From the IMG/VR virus record IMGVR_UViG_3300045988_163663: 64,000 bases of DNA; one strand, written 5' to 3'. A model generated the notes under the pieces. It did no database searches and had not been told where the DNA came from. It was given only the letters and a program-made list of their open reading frames with translations. Numbering within the stretch: position 1 is the first letter of the stretch; each line of letters opens with the position of its first letter. The DNA is from a virus. This document shows positions 26,046 through 51,548 of this stretch, piece by piece. The position numbers and the translations under genes were made by a program.

Positions 26046-27203
26046 ATGAGTTATTTATTTACCAGTGAAAGCGTTTTTGCCGGTCATCCTGATAAGGTTT
26101 GTGATTAGGTAAGTGATGCTATTCTGGATTATGTCCTCCAGCTTGATCCTGATGCACGAGTAGCTTGTGAATGTACTATTAGCCCAGGCATCTTCCATAT
26201 TATGGGAGAGATCACAGCTAAAACAGAACAATCTATTCCTTATCAGGAAATTGCAAGAGAGACTTTAAGATTTATTGGTTATGACAATGATGAAGCAGGA
26301 TTTAACTGCGACACTTGTTCATATATTATTAATGTAGTAAATCAATCCCCTGACATCGCTGCGGGTGTTGATAGGGATGGTGCTGGCGACCAAGGCATGA
26401 TGTTTGGTTATGCAACCAATGAAACAGAAAATTATATGCCTATCGCTCAGCAACTTGCTAACAATATCTCGGTCATTATGTTTAGTAAGTATAAAAATGA
26501 TTTGCTACCTTGGGCATTACCTGACGGCAAATGCCAGATAACTGTCCAATACGATGATGATGGCAACTTTGAAGGGGTAGATACAATTGTCGTATCGGCC
26601 CAACACAAAGACAAGTATAGTATTAAGGAAATAACGCCCGATATTACGAACATTTGTAATATTGCCCTTCAAGGTTATGCCATTAAAAAAGATTGTAAAT
26701 TTTATATTAACCCAACAGGTAAGTTTGTGAAGGGCGGTCCCCAGGCTGATACTGGATTAACAGGACGTAAAATCGTTGTAGATACATATGGTGGCTACGC
26801 TCCGCATGGTGGTGGAGCATTCAGTGGCAAAGACCCCAGTAAGGTAGACCGTAGTGGTGCATATATGGCACGTTATGTAGCTAAAAATCTTGTAGCTTCT
26901 GGCGTTTGCGATAAGTGCATGATTCAAGTTGCTTATATCATTGGGCAGACAGAACCTGCATCTATTGATATTAATTGTTTTGGCACAGAGAAGAAACCTA
27001 TTGCTGAAATTCTTGATGCAGTTAATCAGACATTTGATTTTGCACCACGCAGTATTATTCATAAATTTGATTTAAAGCATACTCGTTATCTGCCCTATGC
27101 TTGCTTCGGTCATTTTGGTCGCATTGAATGCAATAGCCCTTGGGAACAGCTCGATAAAGTAGAAGAATTAAAAACAATTTTTGATTTTAAAAAGGAGAAC
27201 TAA
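26046..27203 (+). CDS. metK: S-adenosylmethionine synthetase
   Basis: FTSESV..GHPDKVCD(TAG)VSDAILD aligns to MetK HPDKIADQISDAVLD; GDQGMMFGYATNET and GGGAFSGKDPSKVDRS motifs. Confidence 0.8.
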
Positions 27204-27292: not shown

Positions 27293-27526
27293 ATGATTTA
27301 TTGCCTCGTTCCAAAAGATGAACTAAAAGATTTGCTCTATGATAGTTTGCGGCTTCAGGCGTTAGACTGTGGCGGCGTTGACAATTGGGATTGGTACGGT
27401 GCATCTATTAGAGATTTTATTGATGCGGCCAAAGCAGATTATAATGTTCCAGAAGATGATGATGATTTCGACATTAGCGATATGGCTGATGTAGATGTTG
27501 AAGGTTATAGAACAGTGGAGGAATAA
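27293..27526 (+). CDS. hypothetical acidic protein
   Basis: ORF 77 aa. Confidence 0.4.
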   Translation: MIYCLVPKDELKDLLYDSLRLQALDCGGVDNWDWYGASIRDFIDAAKADYNVPEDDDDFDISDMADVDVEGYRTVEE

Positions 27527-29169: not shown

Positions 29170-29582
29170 GCAAGGTAATGTCTGGTCCAGGCAATCCTTT
29201 TGTATTTAATCAGATGGATTTTTTAATGGGTCGTATTAAGAAAGAAGACACATTAAATAAATACCATATGCTTCTTAAATCAGGCAGAGTTATTCTTGAA
29301 GACTATTGGTGTTGGCATGGTCATGAATGGTATAAAGCATTAGTTAAATGTCTTAATGATTTTTATATTGTAATTATATCAGAAATAGATGTAATTAGTA
29401 TAGAAAGAATAGAAAATCCAACAGTAGATTCTATCTATATGGAATATATATTGGCAAGCAGAATGAGAGGAGATGAAGTTGATGGCGACTCTATATATGA
29501 TGTGCGGCTTGAGTGCAAATGGAAAGACTACATTCGCGAAATCCTTCGCAAAGATGAATCACATCCGGTATGTAAACCCTGA
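29154..29582 (+). CDS. hypothetical protein
   Basis: ORF 142 aa; 3' end overlaps kinase gene by about 110 nt in another frame. Confidence 0.35.
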   Translation: MEFDMSKVMSGPGNPFVFNQMDFLMGRIKKEDTLNKYHMLLKSGRVILEDYWCWHGHEWYKALVKCLNDFYIVIISEIDVISIERIENPTVDSIYMEYILASRMRGDEVDGDSIYDVRLECKWKDYIREILRKDESHPVCKP

Positions 29583-30018
29583 TGAATTGTATGCTGTCTT
29601 TAATGGTGATGAATGCAACCGTAGTCATAAGTTCGAAGTTTGGCAGACATTGTATCAGATTGTACATTGTGCAGAACTGGACAATGCAGATATTATCATT
29701 GATACTAACTGTTTGACTCTTGGACAGAGAGAAGAAATCAGAAGCCGTTTCCCCCATTTCGATAACTATCAGCTTATGGTTATTATTGCTAGCGTAGAAA
29801 ATTCAAAGGAATGGAACTCCCAGAGACATAGAGTAGTGCCGCAGCAGGAGCTTGAACGGCAGGCACGTATTGTAGACTGGCCTAATTTGACTGACCATTA
29901 TAATGGTTGGAATAATATTAGATATTATTATAATGATGGCTCTCTGTTTACTAAATATCGTGAAATTTATGATGGTGAAGACCATGACTTGCGGCAGGAG
30001 AAGGAGGATAATAAGTAA
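29473..30018 (+). CDS. P-loop polynucleotide kinase-like protein
   Basis: GLSANGKTTFAK Walker A and IIDTNCLTLGQRE resembling T4 Pnk ISDTNLNPERR. Confidence 0.55.
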   Translation: MKLMATLYMMCGLSANGKTTFAKSFAKMNHIRYVNPDELYAVFNGDECNRSHKFEVWQTLYQIVHCAELDNADIIIDTNCLTLGQREEIRSRFPHFDNYQLMVIIASVENSKEWNSQRHRVVPQQELERQARIVDWPNLTDHYNGWNNIRYYYNDGSLFTKYREIYDGEDHDLRQEKEDNK

Positions 30019-30677: not shown

Positions 30678-30902
30678 ATGTTTGGTTTTGATGATAGCTA
30701 TTTTTTGTTCATGAATGAAGCAGAGGGTACTGGAATGGTAAACACTCGTACTGGATGTATTAATACTCTGGTACGTAAGATGCAAGAAAGTCCTCGATGG
30801 TATGTTGAGGAAAATTTTAATATTATGTGTGAAGAGTGCGGGATTGAGGATATTACACCTGCCGAAGAAGATATGGTATGGGAGATGTATAGCCGAGGAT
30901 GA
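30678..30902 (+). CDS. hypothetical protein
   Basis: ORF 74 aa. Confidence 0.4.
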   Translation: MFGFDDSYFLFMNEAEGTGMVNTRTGCINTLVRKMQESPRWYVEENFNIMCEECGIEDITPAEEDMVWEMYSRG

Positions 30903-32479
30903 AAGTTTATTTAAAAGACATATGGCCGATGGACAAGAAAAGAACTTATAGTCCAGTTTATGATGCTAAGGTTTATGATAAAGAAGCTTGGGAAAAACTA
31001 TTAGAAGATTTTAACGAGAATGTTAAAGTAGGAACTTATAGCAAATTACCTTATGCTGATTGGAGAGTTCTTCATCTGATGGATGGAGATTACAAGGTAG
31101 TCTGGTTTGAAATTGATAATGTATATCTGGCTCCTACGGTAGCTCATATTCAGGAATTTAAATATTTAAAAGATTCAGATAATTTTAGAATGGTAGGTAC
31201 TGATAAGAAGTATGATACTTCTGAGGCTTATTCATTTGGTGCATATTTGGCTGATATGCTATTCTATGATTATTTTGATTGTATGGAAACTACTGGAAAG
31301 ACAGATGATTATAGATTATTTGGCTTGAATAATTTAGGAGCATATGGTTCAGAGGATAGTATCGGTTGGCGTGCTATTAATTGGGCACTTAATCCCGCGG
31401 TGGAGGGTACAACTGGTCAAGTGATTTTTAGTGATGTAAAAAAAGATATAAAGAAACTCAATTGCGAGTTTAATAAAACTACTGAAATTATTAATAATTG
31501 TTATAATAAAATTAACGAAAATACTGAATGGCTTAATAAAGTATATGAAGATGTAGATAGAGTAAAAAATACCGCATTTTCTGATACGGCAACTATTAAT
31601 GTTAGCCCTATTGATCCAGCTAAACTGGATACTAAAGATGCAACAGCTTCTACTGCTTCTGTTAGTATAGATTGGGGATATCGTCCAACCGCTTCTACAG
31701 CTAGTTCTATTATTGGTGGAGGCGTTGCGGAAAATACTATTAAAATTGGCAATGATGGTTCATATGCAACAACTATTTCAATTGATAGTGGTTTAACTAG
31801 CCGTCTTGATACAATGGAAGAAAGAATTAATAAACTTGAAACAAACAATGATGATGTGAAAGGTAAAGGAAATAATATGAAGATGTTTAATTTTGATTTT
31901 GGTCCGATTAAGGATAATGATGCTGTCCGTATGTCGCCGTATGGTCTGGCTGTTAAGAATGTTAATGGCACTTATCAGGCATATGATAAGAAGAACGGCG
32001 AAATTATGGATGTTGATATTTTCAACTTTAAAGCTGATAATATGTTCTTCAAGATGCCTGTTGGTATTGACGCTATTGAAGCTGGCGATGTAATTATTTT
32101 CAACAGACGTCCGTGCTTTGTCTTTGGTTTCTCTGAGCAGGGTGATGTAATTGCAATTGATATTGCAATGGGTGAGAAGAAGACTATTATGCCGACACGT
32201 AGTCCTTTCGGTTTTAATTTCATTACGAAGGTTGTGTCTCTGGCTGATGGCATGCTTGGCGGTACTCCTTCTGCTGAAAATCCCTTCGGTAATATGTGGA
32301 TGTTTGCAATGATGGATGATAAGTCCTCTATGAAAGATATGCTGCCGATGATGATGCTGATGAATGGCAATGCCGGCGGCACAATGGACCCGATGATGCT
32401 GTACTTCATGATGAAGGACGGCAAGGGTGATGATGAAAGTATGCTTCCTCTTCTTCTTATGATGAATATGAAGAAGTAA
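30899..32479 (+). CDS. hypothetical protein with Met-rich C-terminal tail
   Basis: 526 aa; last ~70 aa MLPMMMLMNGNAGGTMDPMMLYFMMKDGKGDDESMLPLLLMMNMKK. Confidence 0.5.
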   Translation: MKVYLKDIWPMDKKRTYSPVYDAKVYDKEAWEKLLEDFNENVKVGTYSKLPYADWRVLHLMDGDYKVVWFEIDNVYLAPTVAHIQEFKYLKDSDNFRMVGTDKKYDTSEAYSFGAYLADMLFYDYFDCMETTGKTDDYRLFGLNNLGAYGSEDSIGWRAINWALNPAVEGTTGQVIFSDVKKDIKKLNCEFNKTTEIINNCYNKINENTEWLNKVYEDVDRVKNTAFSDTATINVSPIDPAKLDTKDATASTASVSIDWGYRPTASTASSIIGGGVAENTIKIGNDGSYATTISIDSGLTSRLDTMEERINKLETNNDDVKGKGNNMKMFNFDFGPIKDNDAVRMSPYGLAVKNVNGTYQAYDKKNGEIMDVDIFNFKADNMFFKMPVGIDAIEAGDVIIFNRRPCFVFGFSEQGDVIAIDIAMGEKKTIMPTRSPFGFNFITKVVSLADGMLGGTPSAENPFGNMWMFAMMDDKSSMKDMLPMMMLMNGNAGGTMDPMMLYFMMKDGKGDDESMLPLLLMMNMKK

Positions 32480-32625
32480 GGTTAGTATAGATATTTCTAA
32501 ATATTTGCCAGTTTAGAAAATCACTTCCTTTACGAAATAGACCTCGGTTATCCGGGGTCTATTTTATTTTTATAAAAAAATATAATAAAATATATATATA
32601 AATTAAAAGGAAAAGGTGAATTAAA

Positions 32626-34290
32626 ATGACAGATTTGAGGACTCTTATTCCAGAAGAAGAAAAGAACCTGCTGCACGATTATATTAAAGAGTACCTTCAT
32701 TCTGATAATTACTGTACAGTAGATGAAATTAATCATCTTCTGCGGTTTTGGGCTGTCGAAAAGCCCGACCTGTATAAGCTGTTGGGCAACAACCTGATGG
32801 TTAAAGACCATATTGCTTATCAGGCATCTGAAGAGGATTTGATGGATAAGTTCAGTGAAATGTATGAAGAAATTTATAATAATCCTGAATTAGCAAACGT
32901 TAAAAAATTCATTGACTCTTACGAGCAGATTACTAATATTTATTATTCTTGGATGGATGCCACTCTTGATAAGGATGAACGTGTTAATTGTTGTAGCATG
33001 ATTGAGCATTGCCTTGATAGTGAATCTCTCGTAGCCAATAAAAATGTGTATATGTTTGATTGGGGTCGCAAATCTGTTACTATTCGCCGTGGTCCGCATG
33101 CAGATACTTCAAAGCCGCTTGAACTGAAGAGTGATATGAAGTTGATGCGAATGATGGCTAAAATTGTCGATTGGTTTGAGCTGGACAAAGAAGCATTTGA
33201 ACAGTTCCGTATTCTTCATTCGCGTGTTTTGAATGATCGTATGATTAATGCTAATATTACATTGTCTATTCATCCGCTTGACTATCTTACTATGAGTGAC
33301 AATGCTTGTGATTGGGAGAGCTGTATGAACTGGTATCAGGGTGGCGATTATCGTCTTGGTACTGTTGAAATGATGAACTCCCCTGTTATCCTTGAAGCAT
33401 ATGTTGAGTCTGAGCATCCTTATTGTCCTATTGATCGTGATAATAGAACTTGGAGCAATAAGCGTTGGCGGTGTCTTTATATTGTTAATAAGGATATTAT
33501 CACTGAAATCAAACAGTATCCTTATAATAACATTTATCTGCGTGACTATGTGCTGAATAAGATTAAGCAGTTGGCTGAACAGAATATGGGCTGGCATTAT
33601 GATGATAAAATGTATGAGGTTTGGCAGAACCAGAATAATGATACTGATTTTGGTCAGGTTTATATCCGCATGAGGACCGGAGCTATGTATAATGATTATT
33701 ATGATAATCATTATGCTTATATCAATCCAGAAGTCAAAGAAGTAGAAGTTTGTTATTCTGGTGTAGCTGAATGTATGTGTTGCGGCAAAGGCTACGAAGC
33801 TGACCCGAGTGGAAATGTAGATGCATTTGTAGAATGTGATAAAGTCGTATGTGCAACCTGCGAAGGCAAAGTCCAGTGCGATGATTGCGGTGCTTGGATT
33901 GATAGTGAAGATGCTTGGTTTTGTAGTGAAGATGGTGCAACTTATTGTAGTTGGTGTGCAGAGGGCCGCACCCAGGTTTGTAGCTGCTGCGGAGAAACTA
34001 AATGGCTTGATTATGATTTCAAGAAGCAGGCTCTTCCATATATGTTTGAAGTAAAAACTCCTAATGGTAAGCATCGTCGAGATATTGGAAATCCGATTGA
34101 TGTCTGTGATGATTGCTATGAAGATTATTGTTTCGATGATGTACCAAAGGAACCAGACTTGTGGGGAGATTTTCAATATATTGATGTTGACAAGGTAGAT
34201 AAGAAGGTATGGGAGCCATTTCTGTCCCTTGAAAGAATTGCTGATGCCAAGGTGCGGCTAAAGGCAACTTACCCTGATGATTATGTTTAG
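32626..34290 (+). CDS. large HPLDY/SCMNW-family protein with C-terminal zinc-ribbons (paralog A)
   Basis: LSIHPLDYLTMSDNACDWESCMNWYQGGDYRLGTVEMMNSP core shared with 39720 and 43959; CMCCG..C..C repeats. Confidence 0.55.
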   Translation: MTDLRTLIPEEEKNLLHDYIKEYLHSDNYCTVDEINHLLRFWAVEKPDLYKLLGNNLMVKDHIAYQASEEDLMDKFSEMYEEIYNNPELANVKKFIDSYEQITNIYYSWMDATLDKDERVNCCSMIEHCLDSESLVANKNVYMFDWGRKSVTIRRGPHADTSKPLELKSDMKLMRMMAKIVDWFELDKEAFEQFRILHSRVLNDRMINANITLSIHPLDYLTMSDNACDWESCMNWYQGGDYRLGTVEMMNSPVILEAYVESEHPYCPIDRDNRTWSNKRWRCLYIVNKDIITEIKQYPYNNIYLRDYVLNKIKQLAEQNMGWHYDDKMYEVWQNQNNDTDFGQVYIRMRTGAMYNDYYDNHYAYINPEVKEVEVCYSGVAECMCCGKGYEADPSGNVDAFVECDKVVCATCEGKVQCDDCGAWIDSEDAWFCSEDGATYCSWCAEGRTQVCSCCGETKWLDYDFKKQALPYMFEVKTPNGKHRRDIGNPIDVCDDCYEDYCFDDVPKEPDLWGDFQYIDVDKVDKKVWEPFLSLERIADAKVRLKATYPDDYV

Positions 34291-34369
34291 TTTAAATTCT
34301 TGCCAAAATTGAATACTCGAAAATTTATAAAAAATTTGATATAATATATATAGAAAGGATGGGAGAGAT

Positions 34370-34813
34370 ATGGAACGCATTTATAAATTGACTTATGGTT
34401 CTGACTATGAAGAACAGAAACTTGGTTATCTTACAGAAGATAAGCTGAATGATTATCTTGAAGAGTTGTTTCATTCAACTCTGATGAAAGATAGTATTCA
34501 TAGTCATTTTGAAACTCTCCGAGCAGAAAAGATTAGATATGCAACCAAGCGTTATAATGCTATTCAGGATATGAATAAATATCTTCCCATCCTTCAGGAA
34601 GGCAAAGCAAGTCCTGAATATAGGAATGCCAAGAAAGAATATAAGAAATATGAACGCATTATCATTGATTGTAAATGGCAAATGAAGAAAGCGGATATGC
34701 TGCTTGAGGAATGCAAGAAATGGACGGCAGTTGATTGGCTTCATTGGGCTGATTATAATTGGGAGCCGATTGAACTTAATGTAATCAGACAAGTTAATGA
34801 GGAGGATTGCTAA
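34370..34813 (+). CDS. hypothetical protein, tandem paralog 1
   Basis: DWLHWADYNWEPI shared with next gene. Confidence 0.45.
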   Translation: MERIYKLTYGSDYEEQKLGYLTEDKLNDYLEELFHSTLMKDSIHSHFETLRAEKIRYATKRYNAIQDMNKYLPILQEGKASPEYRNAKKEYKKYERIIIDCKWQMKKADMLLEECKKWTAVDWLHWADYNWEPIELNVIRQVNEEDC

Positions 34814-35271
34814 TGACAATTTATAAGGTAAGCCGCGGCAATGCTTGGGATGAATATGACATTGCTTATCTTACAGAAGATAAGTTGGAAGAATATCTCA
34901 ATGCTGTTTACAATAGCTCTTGGATGGAACAGCATAAGCATAATCATCTTGATGGTATCAATGAGACAGAGAAAGATTACAAAGAAAGTTTTGATAGATA
35001 TATTCAAAGCTGTAATTTCTATCTTCATGCTCCAAAACATGGACAGTTAAGTAAAGAAGCTTCTAAAAATAATTTCAATCAGTGTGAACGAAAAATTATA
35101 GAAACACGCAATAGACTTCAGCAAATCCAAGAGATTAAAGAAGAAGTAGTCAATTGGAGCAAGGAAGATTGGCTGCATCACGCACATTATAATTGGGAAC
35201 CTATCCGAATTAATGATATGGAAAATCTTGAAAGACCTGATGATGACAGAACAAGTGAGGATTGGATGTAA
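34807..35271 (+). CDS. hypothetical protein, tandem paralog 2
   Basis: DWLHHAHYNWEPI. Confidence 0.45.
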   Translation: MLMTIYKVSRGNAWDEYDIAYLTEDKLEEYLNAVYNSSWMEQHKHNHLDGINETEKDYKESFDRYIQSCNFYLHAPKHGQLSKEASKNNFNQCERKIIETRNRLQQIQEIKEEVVNWSKEDWLHHAHYNWEPIRINDMENLERPDDDRTSEDWM

Positions 35272-35504
35272 TGGAAAAGAAAAAGATTGTAATTAAAGTT
35301 TTGAGTGAGTGCGGTACTCTGACCGCAAAACAGATTTCTGCATTTGCTAAACGTAAGTATGATTTTGACATTACACCACAGGGTGCCTCGGGTGTAATGC
35401 GTGGTCTCATTGGTCAAGGCTTGGCTGGTAGTTCTAAGGATGAAAATAACCATACAAGATATTGGCTTAATACTTGCTCTTGGAAGGATATGTCAGATGT
35501 TTAA
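35262..35504 (+). CDS. small putative DNA-binding protein
   Basis: ORF 80 aa. Confidence 0.35.
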   Translation: MDVMEKKKIVIKVLSECGTLTAKQISAFAKRKYDFDITPQGASGVMRGLIGQGLAGSSKDENNHTRYWLNTCSWKDMSDV

Positions 35505-35727
35505 AAAATGTATTGTAACTATTCTATTAGTTGTAACTGTTGGATTACTTCTTATTTCGTCTTGGAAATATACTTCTAATAAAATTCGTATTTTTCCTAA
35601 TACCTTTGGTTCTCAGGGTGTTGAAATTCAGAAACGTGATGGTTATAAAATTAATACAATGCATCCTTATGAAATGATTGAAACAGAAGATGGATATGAT
35701 TTAATTATTCATTTTATTAAGGAGTAA
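35497..35727 (+). CDS. small membrane protein
   Basis: MFKKCIVTILLVVTVGLLLIS TM helix. Confidence 0.4.
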   Translation: MFKKCIVTILLVVTVGLLLISSWKYTSNKIRIFPNTFGSQGVEIQKRDGYKINTMHPYEMIETEDGYDLIIHFIKE

Positions 35728-35728
35728 T

Positions 35729-35899
35729 ATGGCTGAATGTAAATATTTTAGTTATGAAGATACGACTCCTTGGCACGGTGATGTGTTTGATCATCCTGAT
35801 TATAAGTATTATTGTTTAAAGAATGAAAAGAAAAAAGAAATTTTTTCTTGGACTTGTTCAAAATGCCCTTATTATAAGGAGAAGAAAAATGATTCATAA
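35729..35899 (+). CDS. small zinc-ribbon protein
   Basis: MAECKY...CLKN...CSKCPYY. Confidence 0.35.
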   Translation: MAECKYFSYEDTTPWHGDVFDHPDYKYYCLKNEKKKEIFSWTCSKCPYYKEKKNDS

Positions 35900-36161
35900 A
35901 ATGATTGCATGCTCAGAAGAATGTCTCCGCTTGGCCTGTTGTAATGTTTGTAAATATGTTATTCTAGATTATTTTTTTGAGAAAGATAAAGATGGAAATA
36001 TGCAGATTGTAAATGGTGGACCATATGGTTGTTCTCTCCATAAAGATAGTGACCATCAAATGATTGCTGAAAGTTATGGCTATTGTCCAGATTTCCATTG
36101 CAGAAATGCTACTGAGGAAAATGAATACAAATGGGTTGTAAAGGAGACTATTGATGACTGA
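35889..36161 (+). CDS. Cys-rich hypothetical protein
   Basis: CSEECLRLACCNVC... Confidence 0.4.
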   Translation: MIHKMIACSEECLRLACCNVCKYVILDYFFEKDKDGNMQIVNGGPYGCSLHKDSDHQMIAESYGYCPDFHCRNATEENEYKWVVKETIDD

Positions 36162-36402
36162 ATATAAATGTAAAGTATATCTGGTTCCGCCGCAGATAGG
36201 TTGGCATGGATTTAGTCTAGTTGCTGCCCTTGATGCTGAATATGCTAATCAAATTATTCGGAAAGCCGCTGGAGAGAGTAGATATTATTGGGGCTATTCA
36301 CACGTGCGAGAGTATGATGCTATTGATAATGTTTATTCTGATACTATTGGATTTGTATATGAAGGGATTTTTGAAGACGATGAATATAGCAGAATTGATT
36401 AA
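36151..36402 (+). CDS. hypothetical protein
   Basis: ORF 83 aa. Confidence 0.4.
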   Translation: MMTEYKCKVYLVPPQIGWHGFSLVAALDAEYANQIIRKAAGESRYYWGYSHVREYDAIDNVYSDTIGFVYEGIFEDDEYSRID

Positions 36403-36619
36403 ACTGGTTGAAAAAACTGATTGGAATAAATATCAGAAAGAAGATATTCTTGATTCGGTTAAAGAGCATCCTGAACTTCTGGATATGACACCTGTTCAGC
36501 TTCGTACCAGAGCCAGAGATTTGGATTGGGATGCTGATGGATATATGAATAAGGTTAATAGCCTTGAAAATGAAGCGGCTTTGACCAGAGATTTAATTGA
36601 AATTATGTATGGAGAGTGA
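36380..36619 (+). CDS. hypothetical protein
   Basis: MNIAELIKLVEK...; internal start of longer listed ORF. Confidence 0.35.
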   Translation: MNIAELIKLVEKTDWNKYQKEDILDSVKEHPELLDMTPVQLRTRARDLDWDADGYMNKVNSLENEAALTRDLIEIMYGE

Positions 36620-37431
36620 TAATTATGAATTACCATTCAGATAAATGGGTTATGGATAAGGTAGAAACTCATTTAGAAGCAGCTAATATTAGAAGCGAAA
36701 ATTGGGTTAGTTTAATGGCTTATGGTAGCCAGAATTATGGTCTTGATACTCAAAATTCTGATGTAGATACCCGCCTTATTGTTCTTCCTTCATTTGAAGA
36801 TATTGTATTGAATAAGAAGCCGGTATCTTATACCAAGATTCTTTCTAATGATGAACACATTGATTTTAAAGATATTCGTTTGTTCATTGATTGTTTGAAG
36901 AAACAGAATATGGCTTATCTTGAATGTATCTTCACGCCTTATAAAATGGCATCAAGTACGTATTGGAATGAGTGGCAGGCACTGCTTAATGAGCGTGAAG
37001 CTATTGCACGCTATAATCCTTACAAGGCAGTTAAGACAATGAAGGGTATTGCTATGGAAAAATACCATGCAATGGAACATAGATATCCTACTAAGGCCCA
37101 TCTGATTGATACATATGGTTATGATAGCAAGCAGCTTATGCATCTGCTTCGTATTGAAAGATACCTTGGACGTTATATTGATGGTGTTAAATATGCAGAT
37201 TGTCTTCAAGCCCCAATGGGTGATTATCTTCTTGATGTAAAAAATTATCATTATAATCTTGAAACTGCACGAATTGTAGCCAATACTGCTATTAGTAATA
37301 TTACAAGAGTAGCTGATGATTATTGTTCTAAGACCAAGGATGAAGGTAATGAAGAGCTTGAAGATTTTATGAATAAGATTGTTTATCTTATTATGAAAAA
37401 AAGAATTGTAAAGGAAATGTTAAATGTCTGA
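36616..37431 (+). CDS. Pol-beta superfamily nucleotidyltransferase
   Basis: YGSQNYGLDTQNSDVDTRLIV = GS-x9-D-x-D NTase signature. Confidence 0.5.
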   Translation: MIIMNYHSDKWVMDKVETHLEAANIRSENWVSLMAYGSQNYGLDTQNSDVDTRLIVLPSFEDIVLNKKPVSYTKILSNDEHIDFKDIRLFIDCLKKQNMAYLECIFTPYKMASSTYWNEWQALLNEREAIARYNPYKAVKTMKGIAMEKYHAMEHRYPTKAHLIDTYGYDSKQLMHLLRIERYLGRYIDGVKYADCLQAPMGDYLLDVKNYHYNLETARIVANTAISNITRVADDYCSKTKDEGNEELEDFMNKIVYLIMKKRIVKEMLNV

Positions 37432-37615
37432 AGATAATATGACTATTGAAATTGATAGTCGAGATATTGAAGAAATTGAAAATAATTTTGATGATCTTGG
37501 TAAATGGCTGACTGAACATTTTACCAGATTTGGTGCTCAAGCTGTTGTGCTTAGTGCAGTTATAGAAAAAGTAGAAGAATTAAAGGAAGAGTTGGCTAAA
37601 GAAGAAAATACGTAA
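37424..37615 (+). CDS. hypothetical acidic protein
   Basis: ORF 63 aa. Confidence 0.35.
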   Translation: MSEDNMTIEIDSRDIEEIENNFDDLGKWLTEHFTRFGAQAVVLSAVIEKVEELKEELAKEENT

Positions 37616-37628
37616 GGAGGGAACTTCA

Positions 37629-38408
37629 ATGTTCAAGGACTGGGTTGTCCGAGGCGATTGTCATGGCGATTTCACATGGCTTAACGCAAGAATGTTTAGA
37701 ATTTTAAATCCAAAAGACTACGCAATTATTATCCTTGGTGACGTAGGTTTCAATAGTGGCAATACATTCCGGGATGATATGAAGAAAAAGTATGCAAGCC
37801 AGTTTGGATATTCTATCTATTGCGTGCGTGGTAACCATGAGGTACGTCCTGAGAATGTTGAAGGTATGGAACGCATTTGGGATAGTAATGTCCAAGCTAA
37901 CGTATGGTATGAGCCGGCCTACCCTTTGATTAAATATTTTGATAATTATGGGGTTTATTATCTTAAAACAGAAGATAGAGAATATCGCACGTTGGTCATC
38001 TGCGGGGCTTACTCTGTTGATAAATATTACCGTCTTAAAAATAATCTGCTCTGGTGGGAAGATGAGCAGTTGACTGATGCAGAGAAGTCAGAAGTAGAGA
38101 GACTTATTCGGCAGACTAACAAGCATTTTGACCTTGTGCTCTCGCACACTTGCCCTTATTCTCTTAGGCCAGTTGATAAATTTCTTTCAGTAGTAGACCA
38201 ATCTACTGTAGATACATCTATGGAAGAGTGGCTTGAAACTATTAAGAATATGATTACATATGATGTATGGCTTAGTGGGCATTATCATGTTGACCGATTT
38301 ATCAATAAGCATAATATTCTCTATTTTAATTGCATTGACTCATTAGAGGATATTTTTCTCTGGCATGATAAAATGGATGATACTGTAAATAACATTGACC
38401 GCATCTAA
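37629..38408 (+). CDS. calcineurin-like metallophosphoesterase
   Basis: GDCHGD, ILGDVGFN, VRGNHE motifs. Confidence 0.65.
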   Translation: MFKDWVVRGDCHGDFTWLNARMFRILNPKDYAIIILGDVGFNSGNTFRDDMKKKYASQFGYSIYCVRGNHEVRPENVEGMERIWDSNVQANVWYEPAYPLIKYFDNYGVYYLKTEDREYRTLVICGAYSVDKYYRLKNNLLWWEDEQLTDAEKSEVERLIRQTNKHFDLVLSHTCPYSLRPVDKFLSVVDQSTVDTSMEEWLETIKNMITYDVWLSGHYHVDRFINKHNILYFNCIDSLEDIFLWHDKMDDTVNNIDRI

Positions 38409-38501
38409 ACGGTCAATTCTTTTTAGCTATTAAATTTGACTTTTCATATAAAATATAGTATTATTTACTAGCTATTTATTTTATATTAAAGGAGAATTAA
38501 T

Positions 38502-39089
38502 ATGCGAAAATTCTTAAATGTCATTCTTGTAATCGCTATGGTTGCTTTAATGATGATGCCAGTAAATGCTTTTAACGTAATAAGTTATAGTGTTGATGGC
38601 GGAAGCAGGTCAGAAATCGAATACGGTCCTACAGAATATTGTAATTGCGGAATCGACCATACTAATAAACCCTTTGAATGGTGGACTGATATTACATCTA
38701 CTGATAGCCCTCAATGGGATTTAATTCATAATTATTTAACTGTTTAGGAAAACGGCACATTAGCTACTGATGATGGCTATACTGCTTGTGCTCTTGGAAG
38801 GTATTTCGGTAAGATTGGTTCAAAATGGATTTTTATTTGTGAAGATGGTTCAGAAATTAAGGTAGTTAAAGCTGATGAAAAGCAAGACCGCCATACAAAA
38901 AACTGGGATTTAATTCACGGTATTATTTGTGATGAATTAATTGAGCTTGTTGTAGATAGTAAGATTAGTCAAACTTGCCCAACTGGCAATTTCAAAGACC
39001 TTGAAGGCTTTGAAGGTAACATAATTGGGTGGAAAGAAGTCCTTAATAATGAATTACCCGATTTGTTAAAAGGAATAATTTATAAATAA
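38502..39089 (+). CDS. secreted hypothetical protein (TAG-containing)
   Basis: Signal peptide MRKFLNVILVIAMVALMMMPVNA; in-frame TAG at 38745 joins two ORF segments. Confidence 0.45.
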
Positions 39090-39115
39090 AATAATATTAA
39101 ATGAGGTAATATAAA

Positions 39116-39616
39116 ATGAGCGTAGTTGCCGCGAAGGTATATGATAATAATATTCAAATGTCTGCAGATAGTATTTTAACTAATGGATGGGAAAAAGACC
39201 CCAATACTAACTTTACTAAAATTATTTCTTTAAATGATATGATTGTTGGTAGTGTTGGTAATGCAGATGAATGTAGCCTTATGTGGCTATATATGGAAAA
39301 TCATCAGCCGCTTAATGCTACAGAGAGAGAAATTCTTAATTATTTTGCTGAATTTGGTAAATGGAAAGGCGATATTGCTAATACTCGTGATATTAAGAAT
39401 AGTTATTTAATGGCTTTTGAAGGTCATCTTTTCCAGATTTGTGGATATTTGGTTAGAGAAATTAAAGATTATTATGCCATCGGTGCTGGTGCTCCTTATG
39501 CTTTGACAGCACTTCATCTTGGACATGATTCAGAAGAAGCTGTTAAAGTTTCTTGTGCTATGTGTTGCTTCGTTTGTGAACCTATTGTGACATATAATCA
39601 GAAAAAAGATAATTAA
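39116..39616 (+). CDS. HslV/proteasome-like Ntn peptidase
   Basis: AIGAGAPYALTALHLG aligns with HslV AIGSGGPYAQAAARAL. Confidence 0.5.
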   Translation: MSVVAAKVYDNNIQMSADSILTNGWEKDPNTNFTKIISLNDMIVGSVGNADECSLMWLYMENHQPLNATEREILNYFAEFGKWKGDIANTRDIKNSYLMAFEGHLFQICGYLVREIKDYYAIGAGAPYALTALHLGHDSEEAVKVSCAMCCFVCEPIVTYNQKKDN

Positions 39617-39719
39617 ACATAGATAAAAAGGGATAAAGATTTGATTCTTTATCCCTTTTTTATTTTTATAAAAAAATATTATAAAATATTTATAGAAAAA
39701 ATAAAGGGAGTAAATAATC

Positions 39720-41363
39720 ATGACACCTTATGAAGCATTGACTGCACAAGATAAGGAATATATTACTGAATATATTGAAACATGGGGTGGCGTTAATTCC
39801 CCAATTAAACTCAAAGCATCTCTTGATTATATCCTTCGAGAATGGAATAAGAGTAAACAAACTCTATTTAATATTTTTGGCGAAAAGTTAATGTTGGAGA
39901 AGGAAATCCAGGTTGAAGATGGAGATAACAAAAAAGTAAGAGAAGTTAATGAGTATCTTTATAGCACTAATCCTGGTATCAATTTTATTACAAATCTTCG
40001 TAGATTATTTGAATCTGATACTACTTATTTTGAAAATACTTATGCAACAAGGCATGCAATATATAATTTAATTCAAGCTTATCAACTTTTTACTAATAGA
40101 GTTGTTAAAGGATTTACTTATCACAATAAAGATGGTAAAATAGTTAAAGTTCCAGAAGGAGCTAAGGTAATGAAAGTTCTTCAGAAAATGGCTAAAGAAT
40201 TTGATTTACCTGATTTTGAAATTTTTCGCAATCATATTTCACGTATTACTGAAGTACGTAAATCTAAAATTAAATTTACTTTGTCTATTCATCCCTTGGA
40301 TTATATGACTATGAGCGATAATGCAAATTGTTGGGAAAGTTGCATGAACTGGACTCAAGGACCGGGAAGTTATCGTGCTGGTACTATTGAAATGATGAAT
40401 AGTCCATTAGTTGTTGTAGCATATATTACTACTAAACCTTATTATCCAGCAAATACTTCTATTGAATGGACTTCCAAAAGTTGGAGAGAATTGATTATTG
40501 TTCATCCAAAAGCTATTTGTTCTGTAAAATCTTATCCTTATTACAATATTGCATTTGATAAAGCTCTTGTAAATTGGCTTGCTAATTTGGTTGAAGAAAA
40601 AACCGAATAGCGTTATAATAGAAAAAAGCCACAAGAAAGTTTAGATAGCTGTTCTTATATCGAAGCTTGGCAAGATAAAGAAGATAAGGATAATCGTTTC
40701 CTGTTGGATTTTGAAACAAATGAAATGTATAATGATTTTGGTAATACAGAAAATTATGGAATTTTTTCAATTAATCCACCAGACAATAAATATCGTACAT
40801 TCGCAATTAATTATTCTGGTTTAATGACTTGTATGTGTTGCGGCGAAAATGGTTATTGGTCTGATGACACTGAAATGGTAGTTTGTGAAGACTGTGATCC
40901 ACCTACTTATTGTTATTGTTGTGGCGAACGAGTTAATACAAATGATGCAATTGAAGTAGATGGTGAATGGGTTTGCGAAGATTGTTATAATGATTTACAT
41001 AGATGTTTATGCTGTGAGGATGCTCATTTTGATGAAGATTTCACTACTGTATTTGTTGGACATATTGACAATCAAACTATTAATATTGATTATGATGAGC
41101 ATTATATTTGTAATGAATGTCTTGCCAATAAAGAATATTTAAAGTATCTAGGAGATACTGATATTAGAGCTGAAACAATTCGATTGGATGGCGGTCCTTA
41201 TTATGGTAGGGTGGCTCTCTTAATTGAAGAAGATGATTTAAATGTAGAGGCTAAAAAGATAATTTCTAATGATCCTTATTCTACTATAATTACTGATTAT
41301 ACTTATGCTATTCGTCGTTATCCTGAGCGTTTTTATAGTTACAATAAGTCAATTGCGATTTAA
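39720..41363 (+). CDS. large HPLDY/SCMNW-family protein with zinc-ribbons (paralog B, TAG-containing)
   Basis: FTLSIHPLDYMTMSDNANCWESCMNWTQG; TAG at 40608 is in frame with downstream ORF 40704. Confidence 0.55.
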
Positions 41364-41434
41364 TTGAAATTTTTAAAATAAAATAATATAATATATACAT
41401 AAAATAAAGGAAAAATAAAAGGAGTTATTAAATT

Positions 41435-41830
41435 ATGGAAAAGAAGTTTACAAAGCGTGAGCTGTATGATGCTCTGATTGGCAAGCTGTGTGGTGAAGAG
41501 GTCGAAGTTGATGCACAGACTCTGGTTGATTTCTGTCAGACAGAGATTGATCGTATTGATCAGCGTAATGCCAAGGACCGTGAGAAGCGTGAAGCTAAGA
41601 AGGCTGAGCCTGATGTTGCACGTGAGAAGGTATTTGCCGCAGTTGATGAGCAGTTCCGCACTGCTGATGTAATTCACGATACCATTGATGATGAAGAGAT
41701 TACCCTTGGTAAGGTTCGTCATCGTCTGGCCGGTCTTGTCCGCGATGGTCTGGTGAAGAAGCAGGAGATGAAGGTCCCCGGTGGCGAGGGTGAAAAGACG
41801 CGGCACGCCATGTGCTACGCAAAGGCTTAA
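41435..41830 (+). CDS. hypothetical protein, paralog family X copy 3
   Basis: GC-richer island; architecture similar to 10279 and 13118. Confidence 0.45.
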   Translation: MEKKFTKRELYDALIGKLCGEEVEVDAQTLVDFCQTEIDRIDQRNAKDREKREAKKAEPDVAREKVFAAVDEQFRTADVIHDTIDDEEITLGKVRHRLAGLVRDGLVKKQEMKVPGGEGEKTRHAMCYAKA

Positions 41831-41997
41831 TAAATGAAGGGTCGGGAAACCGGCCTTTTTGTTTTGCCCTTTTAGGGTGCTGCTCCGGCCAAGGTCAAGC
41901 GTCTATACCGAACATCCAAATTGAAAAGCGTTTTAAGAATTTTTTTGACTAAATGCTAATAATATGGTAAAATAATATAAAAAAGGAGTAGATAAAA

Positions 41998-42825
41998 ATG
42001 AAAGTTTGTTTAAGACATAATCAAGAAGAACAATATCTCCAAAAGGCAGATTAGGTTGAGGTTAAATGGGCATATATTGACCAACTTCTTGATTTAGTAG
42101 AAAAATATCCTGATAAAGATTTTGTCATAGATGCTCCAAAAGGCAAACCAATGGATTGGAAAAGTATAGCCACTTGTAAGGCCGGCCTACATTAGGGTCA
42201 TACCTTTTATATCCGGCTACATGATTTAAATCCATTGCTTACATTACGCTGGATGGAGAAATACGATTTTAAATTTTTTTATAGTGAACCAGCAAAAACA
42301 TATTATGAGCTGTATAATCTAAAAAAATTAGGTGTATCATATGCTTATATTGATGCTCCTATTTTCTTTGATTTAAATGAAGTAAAAAAAATAGATATTC
42401 CATTAAGACTTGTGCCAAATCGGGCATATATTCAAGGGCATATTCCACAAATGAGTGGGTTACATGGCACTTGGGTTCGTCCGGAAAAACTTGATATTTA
42501 TGAACCATATTTTGATGTTTGTGAATTTGAAAATGATGGACCTACGCAAGAAAGAGCCTTCTACCGCATTTATTTTGAAGATAAGTCTTGGCCAAATGAC
42601 ATGAATTCATTAATTTTTGGACTTAATACTAATATTGATGATAGATTGGTGTATGAAGGTCTTGATGAAATGCGTCTTAATTGTAAACAAGTATGTGAAA
42701 CACCTAAGCCCTATTGTCAAATGTGTGATAAAGTATTATATTTTGAACGGGCCGGACGTCAATGGGCCAAGGAGTATATTGTCGAGCATGAGGGAGAAGA
42801 CCAGGAACGGATAAGCCCTAATTGA
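41998..42825 (+). CDS. hypothetical protein (TAG-containing)
   Basis: ATG 41998 with GGAG RBS; two in-frame TAG then in frame with listed ORF 42235. Confidence 0.4.
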
Positions 42826-42879
42826 TTATTTAATAAAATTATTATATAATATTTATATAATAATAGAAGGGAATAAGAA

Positions 42880-43878
42880 ATGGGTAAAAAAGTTTTAGTT
42901 CCTGATTTTACTGAAAATTGTAGAGGGCTTTTGGAAGGGCTATTTAAGATTAGTGAAGTAGGTCTTTTGAAAGCTCTTGGTGATTTTGTATCTAATAAAT
43001 ATTCTAATGTAGAAATTACAGAAGATTATGTATATGCTGAAGGTAATATTCCTGTTATGCTTATTGCACATGTAGATACTGTATTTAGACAGCCAATTCG
43101 TCAATTTACTTATAATGAGAAAAGAGCAGTTTATAAAGGCAAGGAAGGTCTTGGAGCAGACGATAGAGCAGGTGTTTTTGCGATTATTCAGATTTTACGC
43201 AAAAAGTATAGACCTTATGTTCTTTTTACAACAGATGAAGAAATGGGCGGCTATGGGGCACATGTATTTGTTGAAGCACATCCAGTAGCTCCAAATATTA
43301 AGTACATGATTGAGCTTGATAGAGCTGGTGAAAGAGATTGTGTCTTTTACGAGTGTGAAAATTTTACATTTGTAGATTATGTTGAAAGTTTTGGTTTTAG
43401 GCAAGCATTAGGCTCATTCACAGATATTAGTATTATTATGCCTGAATGGGAAATTGCCGGAGTAAATTTATCAGTTGGCTATCATCATGAACATACTCAA
43501 AATGAAGATTTACATATTAGAACATTGTATAATACAATTAATAAAGTATGTAAAATGCTCGATGATATTGAAAATGCAGATAAATATAAGTTTATTCCCA
43601 GTAAAGAATACCTTCAGTGGATTACATTAACTAATAAATATCATATGCCTTATGATTTTGATGATGATAAACTTCTTAATTGTAGTTTTTGTAATCAGTT
43701 GTATTATGAGTGGGAAGATTTCCCTCTTGATATTGATGGAGTAAAGGTTCATGTATGTCCTGAATGCTTGGCTCTTGACCCTAATATTCATCAATGTGAA
43801 AAATGTTATAATTTATTTTATTCAAATAATATGAAAGAAAGAGTATGTAATAAATGTCGAGTCCCTGTTGTAATTTAA
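42880..43878 (+). CDS. M42/M28-like metallopeptidase with C-terminal zinc-ribbons
   Basis: IAHVDTVF, GADDRAGV, TTDEEMGG metal-binding motifs; C-terminal CSFCN...CPEC...CEKC...CNKC. Confidence 0.5.
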   Translation: MGKKVLVPDFTENCRGLLEGLFKISEVGLLKALGDFVSNKYSNVEITEDYVYAEGNIPVMLIAHVDTVFRQPIRQFTYNEKRAVYKGKEGLGADDRAGVFAIIQILRKKYRPYVLFTTDEEMGGYGAHVFVEAHPVAPNIKYMIELDRAGERDCVFYECENFTFVDYVESFGFRQALGSFTDISIIMPEWEIAGVNLSVGYHHEHTQNEDLHIRTLYNTINKVCKMLDDIENADKYKFIPSKEYLQWITLTNKYHMPYDFDDDKLLNCSFCNQLYYEWEDFPLDIDGVKVHVCPECLALDPNIHQCEKCYNLFYSNNMKERVCNKCRVPVVI

Positions 43879-43958
43879 ATGAAATTAAAGAACAAGTAAA
43901 GAAGGTTATTGCCTATTCATAGGGGCTGGATATTAACCTTTTAAATATTGATAAATTA

Positions 43959-45280
43959 ATGAGCGATTGGGAAGAAAATAAATGTAAATTTTATAGTAGA
44001 CTTCCCGGCAATAAATTAATTTATCAAAGTCATACGCCTATTACAATGTCTATTTCAGAAGATGATAAAAAGGCTGAATTAGATTGTTTTATTGATAATA
44101 TTCGTTGGCGTTATAACTTATTTGAGTTAAAAAATTTTGTTGAAAATAATAGAGAAAATTTTTATAATAATATTTTAAGCGAAGATTATCCAATGGATAA
44201 TGGAACTATTATTCCAAAAGGAATGAAAATAATTAAAGCATTTAAATATTTTGTAGAAGATAAAGAAACTCTTACTGAAATACAAGATAAGGCAAGTATG
44301 CTTATTCAAAATACAAAAATTAATGGATATTTTTGTATGTCAGTTCATCCATTGGATTATCTTAGCCTAAGTGAAAACACACATAATTGGCGGTCATGCC
44401 ATGCACTTGATGGAGAATATCGTGCTGGTAATTTATCTTATATGACTGATAATTGTACAATTATATGTTATATTAAGAGCGAACATGACGCAGTTCTGCC
44501 CAGATTTCCAGATGATGTGCCGTGGGCAGATAAGAAGTGGCGTATGCTTCTTCATGTATCTAATGATGATACTATGATTATTTCAGGTCGTCACTATCCT
44601 TATGAAAGTAAAGGCTTACAAGATTTTGCACTTGAATTGTATGAAACATTTTTTGGGCAAGGATATAGTTTTACTGATTGGTGTCATGAAAAATATAATA
44701 CATTTACAGTAAATGATAAGATTATTTCTAATGATTGTCGTTTATTGCCTACTGGATATATTATGGCCCCAGATATTAAGATTATTATTGATCCAAAAAA
44801 TCCTTTACATTATAATGATCCTCTTCATTCTACTGTATATGATTATTGGTTTAGTATTGCTTATAGTGAACCTTATTGGCATGAAGAAGGCATTCCGCAA
44901 GATAAATTAATTCTTCCAAGAACTCGTACTACTACTAAAGTTAATATAGGACATGATGTAAAATGTTGTATTTGTGGTAAAAATGATTGTGTTTTAACAG
45001 ATACAATGCTTTGTATTGATTGCGAACTTAAATATGGTACAGAAGAAACAGAAGATTTTACTTTCTGTAGAGAATGTGGTAGACGTATCTATATTCCTGA
45101 AGCAATATCATTAGATGATGATGATGGTTATGTATGTCGCAATTGCGGAGACAATTATTAGATATGTGATAATTGTAATATGTATTATGATAAAAAAGAT
45201 TTAATTTATGATGAAGAAAACAATGCTTACTATTGTGAAGCTTGTTATGATGAAATTTTATTTGATAGGGAGAATGAATA
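43959..45280 (+). CDS. HPLDY-family protein with zinc-ribbons (paralog C)
   Basis: FCMSVHPLDYLSLSENTHNWRSCHALDGEYRAGNL; TAG at 45159 read through to TAA 45278. Confidence 0.5.
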
Positions 45281-45589
45281 ATGGCAAAAGGTAGTATTGC
45301 TAAAGATGCTGTTGTAGAAAAAATTGCAGAAGCATTTGGTGAAGATTTCCTTGGATCTTATGATAAAAAGTATTATGTGCGAGCTAAAGAAAATGGACAA
45401 TATATTCAGATTGCAATTAGTCTAACTTGTCCAAAAACGCCTGTTGAATCTTTTGGTTCTATGGATTTTGGTAATAATGAACTTAATTTTGAAGATGGAG
45501 CAACAATTCAGCCTGCGAAAAAGGCTACAGAAATTAGTCCAGAAGAAGAAGAAAATTTAAAAGCTTTAATTGAAAAGCTTGGTTTGTAA
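45281..45589 (+). CDS. hypothetical protein
   Basis: ORF 102 aa followed by hairpin terminator AGAGAAAGTCAAattGACTTTCTCT. Confidence 0.45.
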   Translation: MAKGSIAKDAVVEKIAEAFGEDFLGSYDKKYYVRAKENGQYIQIAISLTCPKTPVESFGSMDFGNNELNFEDGATIQPAKKATEISPEEEENLKALIEKLGL

Positions 45590-45696
45590 GAGAAAGTCAA
45601 ATTGACTTTCTCTTATTTTTATGTTATAATTATTTATATAGGGCATATTATATTAATTAAATAATTAAATTTCTTATATAAGAAAGGAATAAAAAT

Positions 45697-45978
45697 ATGA
45701 AGAAGATTATAATTCCTCAAGAAGAAGTAAATTATCTTTAGAAATTAAATTATGAAATTGAAGCTAGAAAAAATTTATGTCAATTTTTAATTAGACAAAA
45801 TATTAGAAATAAAGCTTTTGATGATTATCATAATGAGTATATAGAATTATTTGCTGAATATGAATTAGCTAAATTAGAATTAGAAAATAATTATATTAAA
45901 CCAGTAATTGGAAATCAAACTTGTAATTGGAATTTAGATTTTTAGACAAACGAGGTAAATATTGATGTTATTTCCTAA
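45697..45978 (+). CDS. small protein upstream of radical SAM gene (TAG-containing)
   Basis: 93 codons with 2 in-frame TAG; overlaps rSAM start by 14 nt. Confidence 0.4.
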
Positions 45979-47305
45979 GATAGTTAATATTCCTGAAGAA
46001 TTTTCTGATTTTATAAGTCGTTTATATTCTAATGATTGCTTAAATTCTTAGGCTGTATTTACATTAACTTTTTAGGTTACAGATGATTGTTGTCTAAATT
46101 GTGTTTATTGTTATCAAGGACATAAAGGAAAACATAAATTATCCTTTAATACAGCTAAATAGATGATTGATTAGATACTAACAAGAGACAGTAAAGTTAT
46201 TAATTATATTGACTCTTATAAAATACCAGGAGTAGTAATAGAATTTATAGGTGGAGAGCCATTTTTAGAAATTGAATTAATTGATTAGATTACTGATTAT
46301 TTTATTAATAAAATGATTGAATTGCGGCATCCTTGGGCCACTAAATATAAAATTTCAATTAGTTCTAATGGTATTTTATATTTTGAACCAAAAGTACAAG
46401 AGTATATTAAAAAAAATAATGAAAATTTAAGTTTATCAATTTCTATTGATGGAAATAAAAAATTACATGATGCTTGTAGAGTTTTCCCTGATGGTAGTGG
46501 TAGTTATGATAAAGCATTGTCCGCCGCATTACATTATAGCCATAATTATAACAAATGGATCGGGAGTAAAATGACTATCTCTCCATTTAATATAGATTAT
46601 TTATATGACGCTGTTTTAGAAATGATAAACAATGGTTATAGTCAAATCAATCTAAATTGTGTGTATGAAAAAGGTTGGGAACTTAACCATGCCACTACAT
46701 TATATTATTAGTTAAAAAAAATTGCTGATTATTTATTAAATAATGATTTGTGGGATAAAGTTTATTTATCTATTTTTTATATTAATGATGGAAGTAAAAA
46801 TTTATCTAATGATAATTGGTGCGGCGGGAATGGTCGTATGTTAGCCTTAAATTGGAAAGGTAAATATTATCCCTGTTTACGTTATATGGAAGATAGCATA
46901 AGTAATCAGCCAGAATATTATATTGGAGATATTTATTAGGGAATAGGCCAAGATAATTTAACCATCAATAGATTAAAAGATTTATCTGAAATAACAGTTA
47001 TTAGTCAATCTCCTCAAAAATGTTTAGATTGTGAAATTTCTGGAGGATGCTCTTGGTGTACAGCTTATAATTATCAAGAAACAGGTAATGTTAATAAAAG
47101 AGTTACTTATATTTGTGATATGCATTATGCTACAGTTCTAGCTTCTTTATATTATTTAAATTCTATTTTAAAAAAAATAAACTCGAATAAACGATTTAAA
47201 TTTAATGGAGATATGGAAAAAGCATTAAAAATTATCTCTTAGGATGAATATAATATAATAAAGGAGGCAATGACAAATGAAAATAGGCACGACAATAACT
47301 TCTGA
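45965..47305 (+). CDS. radical SAM / SPASM-domain peptide maturase (TAG-containing)
   Basis: DDCCLNCVYCYQ (CxxxCxxC), GGEPFLE, C-terminal CGGNG...C...CLDCEISGGCSWC SPASM-type Cys; 6 in-frame TAG; TGA at 47303. Confidence 0.65.
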
Positions 47306-47927
47306 TAGATTCAATGAATTAAAGAAAAAAATAAAGGCTGAATGTTTACGTCGTAAATATATAGGTAGTGTAAGTTCATATGGAGGGACTTCTTATGATT
47401 ATACTACTTAGCCTAATAATGGAAAAGTTATTTCAAAAGAACATATAACAAAACTGGTAGAACCTATGGCGGCAATAAATATTGAAAATCAGAATGAAAA
47501 TATAAATGTTATTAAAGATGATGATTTAAGTACATTAGAGGCAAAAATTACAGCTTATCAAGCTATGGGATTAACTGATTCGAATACTGGATGTTCAGCT
47601 TATTGCACTGGATTATGTTCTACTAGTTGTAGTGAAAGTTGTGGAGTACAATGTCAGGGAACTTGTTTAGGCAGTTGTAAGAATACTTGCCAAGGAGGCT
47701 GCCAAAACACTTGCAGAGGCGGATGTCGAAGCAGTTGTAGTGGCAGTTGTGATGGATGCAGTGGTTCTTGCTCAGGTGGATGCCAGACTGGGTGTAGCGG
47801 ATGCAGCGGTAGCTGTACAAGACATTGTGCTAACGATTGTACTGGATTGTGTGGAGGAAGTTGTTCTGGATTATGCACAAGTTGTACTGGCACATGTAGT
47901 GGAACTGGTAGGAATGAACCATTATAA
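47277..47927 (+). CDS. Cys-rich C-x3-C repeat protein (SCIFF/ranthipeptide-like)
   Basis: AAGGAGG RBS 8 nt upstream; about 30 Cys in CSAYCTGLCSTSCSESCGVQCQGTCLGSC... repeats; one in-frame TAG at 47409; alternative start 47466. Confidence 0.6.
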
Positions 47928-51500: not shown

Positions 51501-51548
51501 TAATGAATAATTTTTAATTTCTAATATATTATGAAAGGAGAGATTGTT

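Follow-up and report, generated by a model that had tools for sequence, protein, structure and literature searches.

A widespread, unnamed phage module of GNAT-like, zinc-tailed paralogs encoded next to a metallopeptidase

The 64,000-nucleotide stretch of viral DNA studied here (IMG/VR record IMGVR_UViG_3300045988_163663; hereafter the window) carries three large genes, A, B and C, which an earlier note made from the sequence alone had described as a triplication of paralogs with cysteine-rich C-termini. We found that these genes are more than a private triplication: they belong to a widespread, unnamed phage module, in which one A/B-type and one C-type paralog flank a metallopeptidase. Based on the predicted fold, the conserved residues and the gene neighbourhood, we tentatively propose, with somewhat less than even confidence, that A, B and C together with the peptidase are a candidate protein-modifying or protein-recognition module, which would work with the peptidase during host takeover or counter-defence.

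Three homologous genes and their TAG codons

The homology of the three genes was borne out by BLASTP and by a family profile. A and B align with an E value of 8e-52 and 32% identity across 450 residues, A and C with an E value of 3e-20 and a match confined to the core, and a six-frame scan of the window with the family profile returned exactly these three copies. The motif block around HPLDY quoted in the earlier note is indeed present in A, B and C (SIHPLDY at 33265, 40284 and 44340). The three proteins share the motif order S[IV]HPLDY, WxSC, YRxG, KxWR, YPY, YND, corresponding to the common pattern S-x-[H/D]-P-L-D…W-x-S-C…K-x-W-R…Y-P…Y-N-D. The multiple C-terminal CxxC motifs reported for each paralog were confirmed as well, and their number is exactly six dyads, i.e., three Cys4 sites, in each protein.

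All three genes lie on the + strand. Two of the boundaries given for them in the earlier note had to be corrected because the phage reads TAG as glutamine: A ends at 34344 rather than at 34290, and C starts at 43854 rather than at 43959. An ortholog that is 91% identical to A (P0001) has Q at the position of A's TAG, followed by an identical 17-residue tail (FKFLPKLNTRKFIKNLI), showing that A extends to 34344. The alignment of B with A runs on across the in-frame TAG of B at 40608. The TAG at 43920 in C corresponds to the Q of a conserved YSQ motif, and 47 homologs from other phage loci have a genuine CAA or CAG there; the orthologs of C are 465-481 residues long. The possibility that the genes are pseudogenes split by stops was rejected, since TAG replaces CAA or CAG of the homologs and the homology runs through it. 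We conclude that TAG encodes glutamine in the window phage (genetic code 15), a recoding known in gut phages (bioRxiv 10.1101/2021.08.26.457843; PMC9523058). TAG codons were also found within the tail-fibre genes of the window, and no tRNA with a CTA anticodon was present among its 12 tRNAs at 51142-56611.

Table 1 Positions of the paralogs, their domains and the other module features in the window
Feature	Position	Strand	Remarks
526-residue gene (g30899)	30899..32479	+	C-terminal half conserved directly upstream of A/B-type gene; no family match
Paralog A (A/B-type), 572 residues	32626..34344	+	In-frame TAG (Gln) at 34288-34290; open reading frame and translation
GNAT-like alpha/beta core of A	33103..33741	+	Carries SIHPLDY, WESC, YRLG, KRWR, YPY, YND
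Zinc tail of A	33772..34116	+	Six CxxC, residues 383-497; first two sites LIM-like
Paralog B (A/B-type), 547 residues	39720..41363	+	In-frame TAG at 40608-40610; ortholog in locus L003 71% identical
Zinc tail of B	40830..41120	+	Six CxxC, residues 371-467
Conserved module gene, 131 residues (g41435)	41435..41830	+	Directly 3' of A/B-type gene; no family match
Terminator-like hairpin	41836..41859	+	Parts B and g41435 from the g41998-peptidase-C-g45281 unit
Conserved module gene, 275 residues (g41998)	41998..42825	+	C-terminal CxxC pair; TAGs at 42052 and 42193
MH-clan metallopeptidase (M28/M20-like)	42880..43878	+	Four C-terminal CxxC; constant family partner
Paralog C (C-type), 475 residues	43854..45281	+	TAGs at 43920-43922 and 45159-45161
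Zinc tail of C	44964..45245	+	Six CxxC, residues 371-464; second TAG of C inside
Conserved module gene, 102 residues (g45281)	45281..45589	+	Start overlaps C stop codon (TAATG)

Distribution of the family and conservation of the module

The earlier note had recognized no function or family for the three genes, and our searches agree with it: they are true paralogs without a named family. A, B and C had no match in Pfam, NCBIfam or PADLOC; the defence and counter-defence models of the latter also failed to match the peptidase and the small module genes. At E values up to 1, Pfam returned nothing for A, B and C, nor for 33 core sequences scanned singly, and no weak match recurred. No sequence match was found in the PDB with single sequences, and none with the core profile at E values up to 10. 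In a hidden Markov model comparison, C matched phrog_18912 (E value 2.1e-19), a PHROG without annotation. A and B did not match it at an E value of 0.01 or better and are thus more distant relatives of phrog_18912, connected to it via C. In searches of the literature, we did not come across any account of the family.

A search of metagenomic phage databases, which had been suggested as a check, revealed a very large family on phage contigs. A retrieved 718 and C 1,605 clusters at 90% identity, none of them named. With the core profile, the number of representatives at 50% identity was 3,749, including 2,006 with E values below 1e-30, and again none was named or had a Pfam match. For the analysis of gene context and co-occurrence, 80 IMG/VR loci were kept, all of which are viral contigs, mostly of 90-240 kb. 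Among 185,579 species genomes there were just 26 loci, all in metagenome-derived bins and none from a cultured isolate; most of these bins were assigned to Bacillota (Clostridia, Lachnospiraceae, Acutalibacteraceae), and many of the loci lie on contigs of 150-176 kb resembling binned phage. Judging from these searches, the family appears to be phage-restricted. Among the phage protein families that still lack a name, a Pfam model, a structure and a function, it is one of the larger, and its clusters at 50% identity, found in large phages of gut Bacillota, number in the thousands.

The gene order across the 80 loci is A/B-type paralog, an open reading frame (ORF) of about 131 residues, an ORF of about 270 residues, the M28-like peptidase, C-type paralog and an ORF of about 105 residues. 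A peptidase homolog was found in 65 of the 80 loci, the ~270-residue ORF (g41998-like) in 68, the ~105-residue ORF (g45281-like) in 60, the ~131-residue ORF (g41435-like) in 49, and a homolog of the upstream gene g30899 in 41. The linkage to the peptidase is even closer when only the 63 informative loci, whose downstream flank reaches 5.5 kb or more, are considered: 59 of them have the peptidase gene no more than 8 kb downstream. Of the four that do not, three are window-like loci, where an insertion shifts the peptidase past the flank, and the fourth is a TAG-rich locus. The order of the module is retained in loci that are merely 31-40% identical to the window. The peptidase gene that the earlier note had pointed out is thus linked to the family by a near-universal gene adjacency.

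Of the 80 loci, 55 had two copies of the paralog, 4 had three and 21 had a single copy, most of the latter being truncated. Since most loci have a pair, we conclude from these sequences that the ancestral state is a divergent pair, one A/B-type and one C-type, flanking the peptidase, and that the third copy in the window is lineage-specific. The triplication therefore holds for the window, where A and B are about 5 kb apart and the intervening genes do not belong to the module, but it reflects an extra A/B-type copy, most phages having only the divergent pair.

The start of C overlaps the 3' end of the peptidase gene by 25 nucleotides. This overlap, the overlap of g45281 with the stop codon of C and the terminator-like hairpins at 41836 and 45586 that bracket g41998, peptidase, C and g45281 suggest that the peptidase and C are co-expressed. 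Sites similar to the hairpin at 41836-41859 were found at 32534-32565, at 39625-39660 and, as the second of the bracketing hairpins, at 45586-45616. The small module proteins gave nothing significant in PDB searches, and g41998 had no match in Pfam, PHROG or the PDB.

Among GenBank phages, relatives of C were found only in seven Enterococcus phages (EF1, EF5, H1 and VRE9_1-4), whose records are annotated without read-through; A had no tblastn match there, and the 18-kb region no megablast match. When gene H1_5 of Enterococcus phage H1 was used as the query, nine relatives were obtained, none of them named. In the phages H1 and VRE9_2, paralog, peptidase and paralog follow one another consecutively, and the peptidase is also present in EF1; in the Enterococcus phages, the module is located between ribonucleotide reductase genes. 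The 'hypothetical protein' and the peptidase of EF1, H1 and VRE9 (phrog_18912 and phrog_34186) match C and the peptidase of the window and have the same paralog-peptidase-paralog arrangement. They differ in that A and B remain unmatched and that one subfamily has DPLD and an acidic tail; both PHROGs are without annotation, so that the comparison gives no function.

Conserved core, zinc tail and possible function

To identify invariant residues, 38 sequences from all three subfamilies, with about 20% mutual identity, were aligned. Fifteen positions were invariant (A numbering): K46, K172, S199, S214, P217, D219, W230, C233, G240, G245, K279, R282, Y298, P299 and D357. With its polar-rich invariant set (S214, P217, D219, W230, C233, K279, R282, Y298-P299 and D357), the core has the appearance of a conserved pocket for a ligand or for catalysis. 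The AlphaFold2 model of A, made with 115 homologs, had a mean predicted local distance difference test (pLDDT) score of 94.9 and a predicted template modelling score of 0.82. It consists of a helical N-terminal domain, an alpha/beta core (approximately residues 150-376) and the zinc-rich tail. When the core was modelled in isolation, pLDDT dropped to 58-64 in blocks covering the post-HPLDY loop and WxSC, whereas the same stretch reached about 89-98 in the full-length model, which suggests that the motif lies at a domain interface. Foldseek searches against BFVD returned uncharacterised phage proteins only. The nearest structural neighbours include several N-terminal acetyltransferases. The apparent likeness to the GNAT fold superfamily (NatD, RimI/J/L, FemX, FemA, ATE1) is at the level of the fold; the family fails the sequence tests and has its own signature.

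In the tail, the cysteines are highly conserved: in the 115 homologs, the first eight are present in at least 94% and the third site in about 80%. In A, their spacing over the first two sites is C-x2-C-x22-C-x2-C-x5-C-x2-C-x19-C-x2-C. Over these two Cys4 sites, the family profile matches CRP2, CRP1, FHL, PINCH and other solved LIM domains, with a best E value of 3.1e-7 (CRP2). LIM domains are of the protein-binding type in eukaryotes. A 78-residue ORF elsewhere in the window (22511-22744) has a cysteine pattern that weakly matches the zinc region of the family (E value 2e-4) and reaches an E value of 0.0025 with Pfam LIM, which is below the threshold; its product may be a stand-alone LIM-like zinc protein.

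The partner enzyme scores 32.2 bits with Pfam Peptidase_M28 (cutoff 21.3) and matches phrog_34186 with an E value of 5.7e-41. Its ligand motifs HVDTV, GADD, DEE and HEHT align with the metal-ligand motifs of the PepT structures 3gb0 and 3rza, so that an intact MH-clan enzyme is predicted. M28 and M20 enzymes are mostly exopeptidases. The earlier note had described the zinc-ribbon tail of this peptidase as similar to those of the paralogs. The peptidase does have a cysteine-rich tail with four CxxC motifs, but the family zinc profile does not detect it, so that the likeness is a generic one only, and homology of the two tails was rejected.

In the function that we tentatively favour, the paralogs would act together with the peptidase as one module. 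The zinc tail would grip a target protein. The pocket conserved on the GNAT-like scaffold would either transfer an acyl or aminoacyl group or recognise a chain end, and the exopeptidase-type partner would trim the same substrates. In this way, the module would remodel host or phage proteins in takeover or counter-defence.

Several observations weigh against this proposal. GNAT motif A, Q/R-x-x-G-x-G/A, is the pyrophosphate-binding loop between beta4 and alpha3. No such coenzyme A (CoA) loop follows the strand ending in YPY; the consensus there is Y-P-Y-x-N-x-x-L without a conserved glycine. In addition, no helix is predicted at the position of GNAT helix alpha4 in the model of A, and no sequence profile joins the core to any GNAT family. 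Membership of the core in the GNAT superfamily is thus not established, and in the model it is only GNAT-like and highly diverged. As to the tail, its LIM likeness depends on the profile match, single family sequences being below the Pfam LIM threshold. The linker between the first two zinc sites has 5 residues and not 2 as in canonical LIM domains, for which reason we term the tail LIM-like; the additional third Cys4 site and the phage rather than eukaryotic setting further distinguish it. One Enterococcus subfamily (H1_5, L001 3437-4636; P0364-P0372) has no zinc tail at all. It carries a strongly acidic, aromatic-rich tail instead, e.g., DEDEYWDDEDDWDY, and DPLD replaces HPLD. Finally, gene adjacency marks a functional link but not what kind of link it is.

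The main rival explanation, which we regard as unlikely, is that the paralogs are non-catalytic adaptors or regulators (pseudo-enzymes), in which a degenerate GNAT-like scaffold and the LIM-like tail recruit, activate or inhibit the peptidase or bind a host protein stoichiometrically. The absence of the canonical CoA motif and the weak fold similarity would agree with this, as would the protein-interaction type of the tail. The peptidase adjacency with its overlapping reading frames would suit a stoichiometric complex, and the exchange of the zinc tail for a very acidic one in the Enterococcus subfamily also speaks for an adaptor. However, there are 15 invariant positions, mostly polar or charged, at about 20% identity, a pattern seen more often in catalytic or small-ligand sites than in protein interfaces. 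Even an adaptor role alone would explain why the block of six genes is conserved in many gut phages.

If instead the favoured reading is correct and the module modifies proteins together with the peptidase, it would add a mechanism of a new type for host takeover or counter-defence, possibly with a new enzyme chemistry. Standard acetyl-CoA transfer is improbable as the chemistry, given the lack of the CoA pyrophosphate loop motif. A speculative but coherent possibility is that the module acts at protein N-termini, because N-terminal acetyltransferases are among the structural neighbours and because of the exopeptidase character of most M28/M20 enzymes. In its most specific form, protein ends would be rewritten: the peptidase, as an aminopeptidase, would expose N-termini, and two GNAT-like enzymes with a Cys/Asp/Lys/Arg pocket and LIM-like fingers would acylate or aminoacylate these ends, with aminoacyl-tRNA as a possible donor, like in FemX and ATE1. 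We consider this version distinctly improbable; if true, the stability of host proteins would be redirected or defence disarmed by a new enzyme family with a new chemistry on the GNAT scaffold. A conceptual parallel is Rac of phage phiKMV, which acetylates the RNA polymerase alpha subunit before its cleavage (PMC7824862), i.e., a phage protein with an acyltransferase fold acts in a step coupled to host-protein cleavage. Rac, however, is a canonical GNAT, its coupling to a peptidase is not a conserved operon, and homology with the family is not established. The family offers a structural model of high confidence, a small set of invariant residues, a fixed partner enzyme and the cultivable Enterococcus phages EF1, H1 and VRE9.

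Genomic neighbourhood

In the window, the module lies in a non-structural region rich in genes of the counter-defence type, and some 12 kb separate it from the tail-fibre genes at 57-63 kb. At 27293-27526, this region encodes a 77-residue homolog of the T7 gp5.9 RecBCD inhibitor (PF25708, E value 6.8e-11, above the gathering score), and an S-adenosylmethionine (SAM) synthetase gene lies just upstream of it (26046-27203). A dispersed set of RNA-repair-type genes (19108-20517, 29473-30018, 36625-37431 and 37629-38408) comprises an RNA ligase, an AAA_33/polynucleotide-kinase-like protein, an RlaP nucleotidyltransferase and a metallophosphoesterase, and is confined to close relatives of the window phage. 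Directly upstream of B, at 39116-39616, there is an HslV-family (Ntn hydrolase) peptidase-like gene (phrog_1040, E value 4e-20), which was found in 2 of the 80 loci.

This neighbourhood bears on the earlier proposal that the paralogs are DNA- or RNA-targeting enzymes or anti-defence proteins. Its second part, anti-defence or host takeover, is plausible from the gp5.9-like inhibitor and the RNA-repair set, as an association only. Its first part corresponds to another rival explanation, according to which the paralogs are nucleic-acid-directed enzymes that modify or cut DNA, RNA or tRNA in a Mom-like manner, with the zinc ribbons holding the nucleic acid. The RNA ligase, the kinase-like protein, the RlaP nucleotidyltransferase, the phosphoesterase and the 12 tRNAs nearby would fit such a role, as would the invariant K and R residues, and phage enzymes of the GNAT superfamily that act on DNA are known (PMC7824862). 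Nevertheless, we consider this explanation improbable: DNA or RNA as the target is unsupported in view of the LIM-like tail, the exopeptidase type of the constant partner and the presence of RNA-repair genes in only 3-4 of the 80 loci. RlaP, phosphoesterase, AAA_33 kinase and the HslV-like gene each occur in only 2-4 of the loci, and a link of the module to RNA-repair, tRNA or HslV genes was rejected. The same applies to the co-occurrence with tRNA or recoding genes, a check that the earlier note had put forward: in only 4 of the 80 loci does the A/B-type ORF gain 40 residues or more when TAG is read through, and the Enterococcus phage records are annotated without read-through; dependence of so few of these ORFs on read-through led us to reject a link to TAG recoding.

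The non-structural surroundings also make it very improbable that the proteins are virion or assembly components, with structural proteins as the substrates of the peptidase. Virion maturation is a frequent task of phage peptidases, and these genes carry TAG, which is enriched in late genes of recoded phages (bioRxiv 10.1101/2021.08.26.457843). However, the module is found among non-structural genes in the window and in the Enterococcus phages alike, and its proteins match no structural PHROG family.

Two other features of the surrounding DNA were observed. The insertion between A and B contains two adjacent paralogous ORFs of about 150 residues (34370-34813 and 34813-35271), which have no family match and share the motifs ...YLTEDKL..YL and ...W.KEDWLH.A.YNWEPI. 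Downstream of the module, at 45965-47305, lies the gene of a radical SAM/SPASM maturase of the CXXX-repeat target family with eight in-frame TAGs, which scores 427 bits with TIGR04115 (cutoff 350) when TAG is translated as Q. It is followed at 47277-47927 by a gene for a cysteine-rich CXXX-repeat protein (TIGR04114), and together they resemble a maturase/substrate pair of ribosomally synthesized and post-translationally modified peptides, here encoded on a phage.

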